From: a virus
Lineage: Duplodnaviria > Heunggongvirae > Uroviricota > Caudoviricetes
Reading direction: 5' to 3' (one strand)
Length of the DNA: 24,224 nt
IMG/VR virus record: IMGVR_UViG_2548876940_000013
Span: 1 to 24,224 of that record
The translations under genes were made by a program, and so were the position numbers. Shown in pieces: positions 8,286 through 10,400 of this stretch. Under the pieces are notes generated by a model. That model saw only the letters and a program-made list of their open reading frames with translations, was not told where the DNA came from and searched no databases. Every line of letters starts with the position of its first letter. Within the stretch, counting starts at the first letter, position 1.

Positions 8286-9227
8286 TCACCCCCTGAATCC
8301 TGCCGGGATCTGGCTGTAGTCCACGTTGTCGTAACTGGCTTTGAAGTACGGGTCTTCACGTTTTTCTGTGTGCGTGCTGACGGACGGCGATAAGCGCAGG
8401 GAAAGCTCATCCCATTTTTCCCGCAACTTCGACGGGCTGAGCACGTTACGGCACCAGAACGGATCGCGGCTGACGCGGCTGTACATCTCGCAGATTTGTT
8501 TGTGAGTACGACCATCCTGCACACACATCAGGCGAATTTCGTTTGCCCAGGCTGTCCAGTTAGGTTCTTTGGGACGAACCACCTCGCCGTCACATTCGGC
8601 GGCCTGCTCGTACAGGGCGATGATTTTTTTCCAGAGCCACTGTGCGCAGGTCAAATCATCCTGCGTTCCCCACTGGCGCTTTTTAGGGCTGAATACAACC
8701 GCATCAGGATGGCGAGTTAAAAAATCCTGTTCATCCATCTGCGTGTCCGGTTGCGAAGCGTCCGGACGAGAAGGTTTTTTATCTGATGGATCATGTTTTG
8801 ATTTTACTGACGGATCCCCGCCAGATTCTGACGGGTGAAAACCCGCTTTTTTGCCAGATTTCGACGCATCAAATTTTGACGGGTCAGATTTTGATGCGTC
8901 AGATTTTGACGGGTCAGAATCTGACAGTTGAGAAAATGCCGCTGCCTGAAGCTTCGCAACGTTAAGCTGATAAACATTCGACGCATTGCGGTTACCCTGG
9001 CGACGCGCCTTACGCGTTAACCAGCCTTCTGCTTCCAGCCGTGCGATAGCCGTTCTGACGGTACTCATCCCCGCGCCAATCTGACGGGCAATGGTTTCAA
9101 TTGATGGCCAGCACACACCTTCGTCATTACTGAAATCAGCCAGGCGGGCCATAATTGCCACGCTGGATAACTTCATGCCTGATGCAGCGCAACCATCCCA
9201 TACATAGCCGGTTAATTTAGTGCTCAT
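8286..9227 (-). CDS. Phage replication initiation protein (winged-helix N-terminus, iteron-encoded linker, DnaT-like C-terminus)
   Basis: N-terminal HTH (WPSIETIARQIGAGMSTVRTAIARLEAEGWL). Central low-complexity repeat SDPSKSDASKSDPSKFDASK encoded by the iterons. C-terminal end SQIPAGFRG resembles the E. coli DnaT C-terminus as recalled. Confidence 0.7.
   Translation of the reverse strand: MSTKLTGYVWDGCAASGMKLSSVAIMARLADFSNDEGVCWPSIETIARQIGAGMSTVRTAIARLEAEGWLTRKARRQGNRNASNVYQLNVAKLQAAAFSQLSDSDPSKSDASKSDPSKFDASKSGKKAGFHPSESGGDPSVKSKHDPSDKKPSRPDASQPDTQMDEQDFLTRHPDAVVFSPKKRQWGTQDDLTCAQWLWKKIIALYEQAAECDGEVVRPKEPNWTAWANEIRLMCVQDGRTHKQICEMYSRVSRDPFWCRNVLSPSKLREKWDELSLRLSPSVSTHTEKREDPYFKASYDNVDYSQIPAGFRG
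8800..8927. repeat. Origin-of-replication iteron array inside the replication gene
   Basis: Seven copies of a roughly 15-bp unit (consensus agattttgacgggtc), four contiguous at 8871-8927 and three more at 8800-8870, with an adjacent AT-rich tract at 8771-8800. Confidence 0.7.
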
Positions 9228-9396
9228 GACCGACCTCTATTTCCCTGAATTTACGACGAAACTGTTCGAGCGGACTGAAGCATTCATGCTCATAACCTTC
9301 GCGGAGGTAGATAACCCGTTGTGTTTCCGGCTCCCAACGAATGACTCTGACGAGCACTCCGTAGTGATCTTTGAACCAGCGGTTAACTTGTCGCAA
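9217..9396 (-). CDS. Small hypothetical protein (59 aa, TTG start), alternative frame to the 9237-9575 ORF
   Basis: TTG at 9396 preceded by a strong SD aaggag with 8-nt spacing. Product ([40 protein letters not shown]...) looks protein-like. The stop overlaps the replication gene start. Confidence 0.3.
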
Positions 9397-9575
9397 AGGA
9401 CTGTCTCCTTCTGCCGGTTGAAATCACCCACAGCCCACTCTGCAAAGCTGTGGGTTACAATTTCCCTGTCACCTGGTACATTCACTGCATAGCAATATTC
9501 CACCTTCGCTTTTCCACCCGGTACAGGAAGCGCAATCAGTTGCGAGCGACGGTAGTGTGTTGTTAAACTGTTCAT
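9237..9575 (-). CDS. Hypothetical protein (112-aa ORF; the C-terminal half looks low-complexity and may be the wrong frame)
   Basis: ATG at 9575 with SD ggagaaa, overlapping the upstream stop (ATGA). The N-terminal 55 aa look plausible; the Ser-rich remainder overlaps the better-looking 9217-9396 frame. Confidence 0.35.
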
Positions 9576-10162
9576 GCGTTAGTTTCTCCACAACCAGAAG
9601 CAATCGACGCCACGACGCCCGGAGCTGCACACTCGCGGGCGTCATTACTTTCTGAAATGCAAAAAATTTTGTAGACAAGTGCTGCATGCTCCTGCAGCTT
9701 CGAAATTGAGAGATACAGCTCGTCGTTAATTGCTGTCTTCTCATGCGGTTCCACTACGCCGTCTTCGATTGCTGAACGAATCTGTTTTGAATAACTGCCG
9801 ATCTGTTCAATGACTTCCAGCAGACGCTGGTTAATATCGGCGTTGTCCACATCCTCGACGTCAGGAAGAGACACAAAGACGCCATTTGCAGACTGCGCCA
9901 CAGCATCAGCAATGAAGTGAGTGCCACCAGCACGCTGTAAAACCATTGCCCATCCCAGCGGGAAAATCTGATCGCCATCTGCACGAAGGCGGTTGAATAA
10001 AGCGTTCTCTGTTACATCCAGCCAGTCAGCGGCTTCAGCGTAACCCCCCGGCAACGCCGCGATAGTTTTTCTGACAGCTTTCACGTACCACTCAGGCTGT
10101 TTTTCTATTTTCCAGTGATGCTTACCCACGGCTATCTCCTTAAAACTGTGGTTACTTTTCAT
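9572..10162 (-). CDS. Hypothetical early regulatory protein (CII/YdaT-position)
   Basis: Occupies the slot after the cro-like gene. The track start (TTG 10234) overlaps the cro-like gene, so the ATG at 10162 is preferred. No motif recognised. Confidence 0.4.
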
Positions 10163-10400
10163 CTGATGAATCTTTAATCTTTTGAAAAATATCTGGACGT
10201 AATTTTTCTTTTGATATGCCAGTGGTCTTTTCAATGAATATCGAGAGCTTTGCAGGGGGACGCTTTTCTCTGTTCAACCAGTTCCAGACATGTTGTTGCT
10301 TTACTAAATGACCGCTGCTGGCTGTGAGCTTCCGAGCCAATTCTGATTGACCACCAGCCAGAGCGATTGCCTCCGATAAGGCTAATTGCTCAGGTGTCAT
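10152..10400 (-). CDS. Cro/YdaS-like HTH regulator
   Basis: 82 aa with the HTH ALAGGQSELARKLTASSGHLVKQQHVWNW. Strong SD aaggagaaa. Divergent from the CI-like repressor across an operator-containing spacer. Confidence 0.7.
   Translation of the reverse strand: MTPEQLALSEAIALAGGQSELARKLTASSGHLVKQQHVWNWLNREKRPPAKLSIFIEKTTGISKEKLRPDIFQKIKDSSDEK

Follow-up and report, generated by a model that had tools for sequence, protein, structure and literature searches.

Does a segment of phage DNA that can be translated in two frames hold one gene, one gene read with a ribosomal frameshift, or two genes? The question is raised by IMG/VR record IMGVR_UViG_2548876940_000013, a member of the Caudoviricetes, of which positions 1 to 24,224 were analysed here (24,224 nt; hereafter the window). 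Its minus strand carries, at 8286-10400, the early rightward operon of an E. coli prophage of the e14-like lambdoid type, with the gene order YdaS/Cro-like gene, ymfL, ymfM, DUF4222 and replication gene. The two genes in question, ymfM with 112 amino acids (aa) and DUF4222 with 59 aa, have ~160 nt in common in different reading frames, the open reading frame (ORF) of DUF4222 being in the -1 frame relative to that of ymfM. An earlier sequence-only reading of this DNA had left a choice between one frameshifted gene and a short gene missed by ORF calling.

The answer that we consider likely is that two separate, independently initiated genes overlap out of frame within a translationally coupled operon, and that the overlapping part of YmfM, its tail, serves mainly as a translated spacer. 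In this arrangement, ymfM would begin where its start codon and the ymfL stop overlap as ATGA and encode a conserved ~60-aa N-domain followed by a ~50-aa tail in the +1 frame of DUF4222, and DUF4222 would begin within ymfM at its own AAGGAG-N8-TTG, with no ribosomal frameshift involved. The components themselves are known; what is new is that the two genes form a maintained overlapping pair, that their non-overlapping ancestral state is still visible, and that the pair confounds the functional assignment of ymfM. Both the relation of ymfM and DUF4222 and its consequence appear to be previously undescribed.

The two genes and their starts

The sequence-only reading had described a 112-aa ORF and a 59-aa TTG ORF within 9217-9575, had noted AAGGAG with 8-nt spacing before the TTG and had let the shorter ORF end over the start of the replication gene. 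All of this is reproduced here (Table 1), with AAGGAG exactly 8 nt before the TTG and with the TAA of the shorter ORF (9217-9219) lying 11 nt into the 313-aa replication gene (ATG at 9225-9227). With 59 aa, the ORF had fallen just under the 60-aa cut-off of the ORF track, and the idea of a short gene missed by ORF calling proved right: it is a genuine DUF4222 gene, already present in Pfam and RefSeq, and both its start and its Shine-Dalgarno site are its own and conserved. Its product matches the Pfam family DUF4222 (PF13973; gathering threshold 27 bits) with 66.3 bits (E 1.7e-18) over profile positions 3-52 of 53. A total of 133 homologues, 59-70 aa in length, were found across Enterobacterales, down to 49-56% identity in Providencia, and the gene is conserved from Escherichia through phages of Providencia, Serratia and Yersinia. 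Among 35 unique enterobacterial sequences, the start position is constant (ATG in 29, TTG in three and GTG in three), and relatives carry a Shine-Dalgarno-like site (GGAGG/GGAAGG/AAGGGG) 7-9 nt before it.

The protein itself is just as well defined. An alignment of 22 DUF4222 sequences has 16 invariant columns, and the AlphaFold2 (AF2) model is a five-stranded small beta-barrel with a predicted local distance difference test (pLDDT) score of 84. A scan of IMG/VR returned near-identical e14-type loci only and served for counting polymorphisms, not for deep divergence; in the 79 e14-like loci, 12 of the 14 polymorphic sites of the overlap fall on the third codon position of DUF4222, which is the second position of the ymfM tail. 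Between genera, too, variation in the overlap is mainly found on DUF4222 third positions. This pattern of variation places the DUF4222 frame under strong purifying selection. There is consequently next to no chance that the 112-aa frame is the sole real gene and the 59-aa frame spurious: the curated K-12 annotation does have ymfM alone, but the Pfam match, the spread of homologues, the selection on the DUF4222 frame and the confident fold prediction all speak against it, as does the occurrence of the family without an overlapping ORF. In Serratia phage BZS1, phage SaltyDalty and KpnBHU6, for instance, DUF4222 stands alone before the replication gene, with its +1 frame closed.

The 112-aa frame is ymfM as known from K-12, the same gene with the same length and neighbours. 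Its locus is 99% identical to K-12 e14 at the DNA level over 441 nt, including start and stop, with ymfL upstream and the replication gene downstream as in K-12, and its product matches phrog_1170 with an E value of 8.5e-69. PHROG holds a separate family for each of the two frames, and NCBIfam has no model for either product. According to the sequence-only reading, full-length homologues of the 112-aa frame together with a lack of homologues for the 59-aa frame would have spoken against its proposal. The outcome is mixed: the longer frame is matched along its full length by homologues of 108-117 aa, and the shorter frame has homologues as well.

The N-terminal half of ymfM is a real coding gene, judged by its pattern of variation. 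Upstream of the overlap, polymorphic sites in the e14-like loci peak at the third position of the ymfM codon (2/6/14 sites at positions 1/2/3), and diversity by codon position amounts to 0.156/0.134/0.26. Three N-domain sequence types can be told apart, all of which start with MNSL(T/N) at the ATGA overlap with the ymfL stop. Homologues of the N-domain are also found as stand-alone genes of 59-68 aa: in L133-135, a KilA-N gene comes next and DUF4222 is absent, whereas L136-138 have N-domain gene, DUF4222 and replication gene in order, with a 4-nt overlap at every junction (L numbers denote related loci). In the AF2 model of YmfM (mean pLDDT 55), residues ~10-66 fold into three strands and two helices at moderate confidence (pLDDT 57-76), while residues 68-112 are disordered (pLDDT <50).

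Programmed -1 frameshifting, which would fuse the YmfM N-domain to DUF4222 in one two-domain protein, was the other option of the sequence-only reading. Programmed -1 frameshifting is known from dnaX and the phage tail chaperone pair G/GT, and the present locus resembles both in having two frames in a -1 relation over the same DNA. In addition, an ATTTC tract near 9420 could permit a single-tRNA slip, and in-frame N-domain::DUF4222 fusion proteins exist in databases (P0031, P0053, P0060 and P0065). Yet each of these fusions is known from one contig, with four different junctions among them, as expected of indels or assembly errors. Unlike dnaX and G/GT, the locus has a downstream start of its own and lacks a conserved slippery heptamer (X XXY YYZ), which the sequence-only reading had suggested looking for: no canonical one is present in the sole permissive stretch of the window (27 nt), and a scan of 34 loci returned only AAAGGGG in L015. 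Moreover, a stop in L017, L035 and L037 shuts the DUF4222 frame 0-3 nt ahead of its start codon, meaning that fusion is impossible in these relatives. Taken with a conserved start and Shine-Dalgarno site in front of DUF4222 and its presence also where there is no N-domain gene, these findings make frameshifting very improbable. Local RNA folds do not significantly exceed shuffled sequences in stability (z -1.3 to -1.6).

Several further observations concern the two products. The DUF4222 protein of the window has Leu at residue 15 (CTC; T at 9353 on the minus strand; ymfM codon 75 TCG) in place of the Pro (CCC) of K-12; Pro15 is found in 79/79 IMG/VR e14-like loci and is the family consensus (29/35), and three E. 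coli genomes that are 100% identical to the window over 9100-9700 hence share Leu15. YmfM residues 19-51 (window 9423-9521) match many tandem stretches of large Listeria-Bacteroides-repeat (Flg_new) and DUF7507 proteins. We considered homology of the N-domain to these repeat proteins and discarded it, taking the matches as motif-level similarity summed over repeats; the shared element is probably a small beta unit. Finally, a 32-34 aa ORF in the +2 frame (MNAEYQTAG...) recurs in type-B loci (L008, L013-L016, L020, L024-L028, L031 and L033-L036), where it spans -91 to +8/+14 from the DUF4222 start and runs over the C-terminal half of the N-domain gene; its recurrence may simply follow from conservation of the other frame.

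The ymfM tail and its stop

If the two genes are separate, it remains to explain why the ymfM frame runs on over DUF4222 at all. A Ser-rich tail had been noted in the sequence-only reading, and Ser indeed makes up 23% of the final 53 residues of the 112-aa ORF, versus 5% of the first 59. The implied view of this tail as non-coding noise does not agree with what the relatives show, namely a frame that is kept open and has a conserved stop at its end. It is worth stressing that the compared loci were gathered via similarity to DUF4222, not via the ymfM ORF. Among them, the ymfM frame is open through the overlap in every e14-type relative from Escherichia, Citrobacter, Enterobacter, Kosakonia and Kluyvera, and likewise in those from Phytobacter, Atlantibacter, Silvania, Buttiauxella and Pantoea. 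The ymfM stop is at the same place in the e14-type relatives, with the exception of Pantoea and the SfV-type loci.

How surprising this openness is can be gauged by resampling the synonymous codons of DUF4222, which leads to an expectation of ~2 stops per sequence and a probability of 0.02-0.18 per sequence of having none. The 32 sequences of the resampling set have no stop in the ymfM frame (0/32), and the +2 frame holds the expected 3-4. The codons at which a stop could arise are particularly telling. Where a Val or Leu codon of DUF4222 (GTN/CTN) precedes a codon that begins with A, a purine at its third position creates TGA or TAA in the ymfM frame. Purine endings are absent from all such sites (0/124; 0/48 when each of 15 clusters, separated by >40% divergence at four-fold sites, is represented by one sequence), compared to 44/97 before C or T (17/34 by cluster representative; Fisher 1.4e-8). 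In the flanking genes of the same loci, 60% of GTN/CTN codons in the A-following context end in a purine. Fitch counts on the tree give the same picture, with no change between purine and pyrimidine at any of the three at-risk columns, against 4-7 changes at 13 of 15 four-fold columns that are not at risk and one change at each of the other two. The at-risk codons are not frozen altogether, as one such column toggles between the safe codons GTC (18) and GTT (17).

A natural negative control is provided by L136, in which the N-domain gene stops at ATGA before DUF4222: here, the +1 frame of DUF4222 has four stops. Across diverged homologues, both frames of the overlapping pair are therefore open beyond expectation. 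Purifying selection within the overlap on the amino acids of both products was not found, with only DUF4222 being constrained and the tail showing openness and stop position only. On the evidence of these alignments, the amino acids of the tail vary freely, whereas its frame is protected from stops and has a fixed end point.

In 34 of the 35 unique sequences, the ymfM stop is built from a DUF4222 codon ATA, TTA or CTA plus the A or G that follows, all of them rare codons. Where this codon encodes Ile, ATA is used in 25/25 cases, as opposed to ~10% ATA usage nearby. In all e14-type loci, moreover, the stop lies 9 nt before the ATG of the replication gene, making for a conserved junction.

It could be argued that only the N-domain and DUF4222 matter and that the tail is accidental read-through, open by shared ancestry or chance; its amino acid sequence is unconstrained and predicted to be disordered, after all, and the N-domain genes of other phages work with no tail attached. 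Against this stands the absence of stop-creating synonymous codons at all at-risk sites in 15 lineages that differ at more than 40% of their four-fold sites and toggle freely between safe codons, in addition to the rare codons that maintain the stop position and the four stops found in the same frame of relatives without read-through. We regard accidental read-through as quite improbable.

One side observation relates to the same region. The YmfM database variants P0020, P0021, P0024, P0027 and P0028 diverge after residue 88 (...RKHNGL; window ~9310) into unrelated sequence. This comparison suggests that the DUF4222 coding region contains a recurrent junction of mosaic or recombinant origin.

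Proposed coupling to the replication gene

Why would selection act on the openness of a frame rather than on the peptide it encodes? The favoured explanation starts from an ancestral layout still seen in relatives, in which 4-nt ATGA overlaps link the N-domain gene, DUF4222 and the replication gene in order. Loci of the e14 lineage differ in that the N-domain gene reads on over DUF4222, and selection keeps the ymfM frame free of stops and ending at a fixed stop beside the ribosome-binding site of the replication gene. The selected property would most likely be translation across the region, not the tail peptide. Ribosomes that have translated ymfL and ymfM would arrive within 9 nt of the replication-gene ATG, permitting termination-reinitiation, and the passing ribosomes might also open the start region of DUF4222.

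Providencia offers an instructive variation of this layout. There, TAATG or ATGA closes the N-domain ORF and opens a separate ORF of 55-58 aa, which runs over DUF4222 in its +1 frame and terminates 5 nt short of the replication gene. The ORF is split, but the +1-frame ORF still reaches the replication gene, which means that the relay is kept.

Termination-reinitiation coupling in operons is typically associated with ATGA and TAATG junctions. The locus fits this pattern in having ATGA at the ymfL/ymfM junction and a ymfM stop that abuts the Shine-Dalgarno site of the replication gene, and the Providencia and L136 relatives have ATGA or TAATG at every junction. It differs from the usual case in that the proposed coupling ORF crosses the whole of another gene in a different frame. 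As for gene nesting, the embedded out-of-frame pair Rz/Rz1 of phage lambda is the obvious comparison, in which Rz1 lies wholly within Rz and both polypeptides are functional and constrained. Like Rz1, DUF4222 starts independently inside a longer gene that is read in a different frame, and both frames have been kept. Unlike Rz1, it extends 20 nt beyond the end of the longer gene, and only the DUF4222 segment is constrained in sequence, the ymfM segment being merely open. The locus is also a clean natural example of overprinting, with the non-overlapping ancestral layout preserved in relatives and one overlapping frame selected only for openness, and a useful one for testing ideas on the origin of overlapping genes and on translational coupling across a nested gene.

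Several points weigh against this interpretation. The +1 frame of SfV-type phages has no conserved stop and is open for 250-330 codons, so the stop is not universal. Translation of DUF4222 also ends by the start of the replication gene and could deliver ribosomes by itself, which weakens the rationale for coupling through ymfM. Local RNA folds at the two starts are no more stable than shuffled controls (z -1.6 to +1.6); a 6-bp stem that pairs AAGGAG with the spacer is predicted, though not significant. Expression of both products is deduced from sequence evolution only. Lastly, some synonymous sites of the overlap are unusually invariant (AAC in 35/35, GTT in 34/34), which hints at a further constraint on part of the tail or on the RNA that the spacer idea does not explain.

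These invariant sites, which give rise to a recurring 'LT..GS' and 'LST' pattern, also bear on the alternative that the tail is a functional peptide, e.g. a disordered arm for FtsZ inhibition or turnover, and thus a case of true dual coding. The open frame with its conserved stop and the filamentation caused by full-length ymfM would agree with such a role. However, most variation in the overlap falls on second codon positions of the tail, its pLDDT stays below 50, and the tails of Escherichia (Ser-rich, hydrophilic) and Providencia (with a hydrophobic start) bear no resemblance to each other. A functional tail peptide is hence unlikely in our judgement, albeit less so than accidental read-through.

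With regard to the SfV-type loci, i.e. L124 (SfV), L132 (phage 1720a-02), L129 and L037, the +1 frame runs into a Rha/antirepressor-like gene and on its way crosses a conserved segment (IDSAIPGRYTV.APYKAGAGIGV...). The long frame may encode a single long protein or else be an upstream-open frame belonging to the Rha gene.

Annotation, published function and the wider locus

The two main sources of annotation, K-12 and the Prokaryotic Genome Annotation Pipeline (PGAP), each omit one of the two genes. PGAP calls the 59-aa ORF of RefSeq E. coli genomes a 'DUF4222 domain-containing protein' (WP_001250266.1) and has no ymfM; nothing is annotated in the 175 nt that separate DUF4222 from ymfL (window 9397-9571; 4298-4472 in L001), and the N-domain is missed as a result. 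The K-12 annotation, in turn, has ymfM and no DUF4222 gene. Phage records are inconsistent, containing one frame or the other or, as in orf37 of SfV, a 278-aa read-through ORF. The matter concerns a large number of genomes, given that the segment was matched in 2685 of the 5426 complete E. coli genomes searched.

This division of annotation has consequences for the function assigned to ymfM. Ansari et al. (bioRxiv 10.1101/2020.11.19.390815) reported that ymfM of e14 is SfiC, an SOS-inducible inhibitor of division. In that work, ymfM was treated as a single 112-aa gene, the whole ORF being expressed from pBAD24 and a ymfM deletion being used; two screens that pointed to ymfM recovered fragments spanning ymfL' to ymfN' (bioRxiv 10.1101/2020.11.19.390815). 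The complete DUF4222 gene, together with its AAGGAG-TTG start, is present in the cloned ORF and in the library fragments and is removed by the deletion. As all constructs carry both genes, the experiments covered here cannot tell which protein blocks Z-ring formation, and the preprint reports neither protein detection nor frame-specific mutants (bioRxiv 10.1101/2020.11.19.390815). In an SOS multi-omics study, the ymfM transcript appears among those induced late, and there is no row for the YmfM protein.

It is conceivable, though we hold it to be rather doubtful, that the SOS-inducible division block of e14 (SfiC) which has been attributed to the 112-aa YmfM since 2021, is caused by, or requires, the nested DUF4222 beta-barrel protein. 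If this were true, DUF4222 would constitute a widespread new family of phage-encoded Z-ring inhibitors, located beside the replication gene in many enterobacterial prophages. The ymfM gene is now cited as the long-sought SfiC and employed as a tool to obtain filamentous cells. Our literature search found no paper that mentions DUF4222 together with ymfM, and the titles and abstracts of papers naming DUF4222 do not address the function of the family.

Table 1. Features of the early operon and of the ymfM/DUF4222 overlap (window coordinates)
Feature	Position	Strand	Basis or remark
YdaS/Cro-like gene	10152-10400	-	
ymfL, CII-like (Phage_CP76 / NCBIfam YmfL)	9572..10129	-	Pfam and NCBIfam matches; start set by K-12 homology
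GGAG Shine-Dalgarno-like site, 10 nt 5' of the ymfM ATG	9586..9589	-	Direct sequence reading
ymfM, 112 aa, ATG start	9237..9575	-	K-12 b1148 'cell division inhibitor YmfM'; phrog_1170
N-domain of YmfM, residues 1-66	9378..9575	-	Codon-position variation, stand-alone homologues, phrog_20047, AF2
YmfM tail, residues 67-112, Ser/Thr-rich, +1 frame of DUF4222, stop-free	9240..9377	-	
AAGGAG Shine-Dalgarno site of DUF4222 gene, 8 nt before TTG	9405..9410	-	
DUF4222 gene, 59 aa, TTG start, out of frame within ymfM	9217..9396	-	Pfam PF13973, WP_001250266.1
ymfM TAG stop	9237..9239	-	Rare DUF4222 codon ATA plus next G; abuts GAGG
GAGG Shine-Dalgarno site of replication gene	9234-9237	-	
Replication-initiator gene, O-like, HTH_36, 313 aa	8286..9227	-	ATG 9 nt past the ymfM stop, in the frame of ymfM

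Upstream of ymfM, the TGA stop of ymfL shares the motif ATGA with the ymfM start codon, a junction that is kept in most loci. In K-12, ymfL (b1147) comprises 558 nt and its end lies 4 nt into ymfM. The longest ymfL ORF of the window starts with TTG at 10234, resulting in an 83-nt overlap with the Cro-like gene, and the start used in K-12 and by PGAP is 10129 (186 aa).

Downstream, the replication-initiator gene contains an iteron-like array in which four to five direct repeats follow one another at a 15-nt period (CAGATTTTGACGGGT-like; window 8855-8929), with a flanking copy at 8807-8836. The direct repeats are accompanied by overlapping inverted repeats, and the array encodes an SKSD/SKFD repeat of the replication initiator. 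Such an arrangement would be expected of the iterons of a lambdoid origin situated within the O-like gene.

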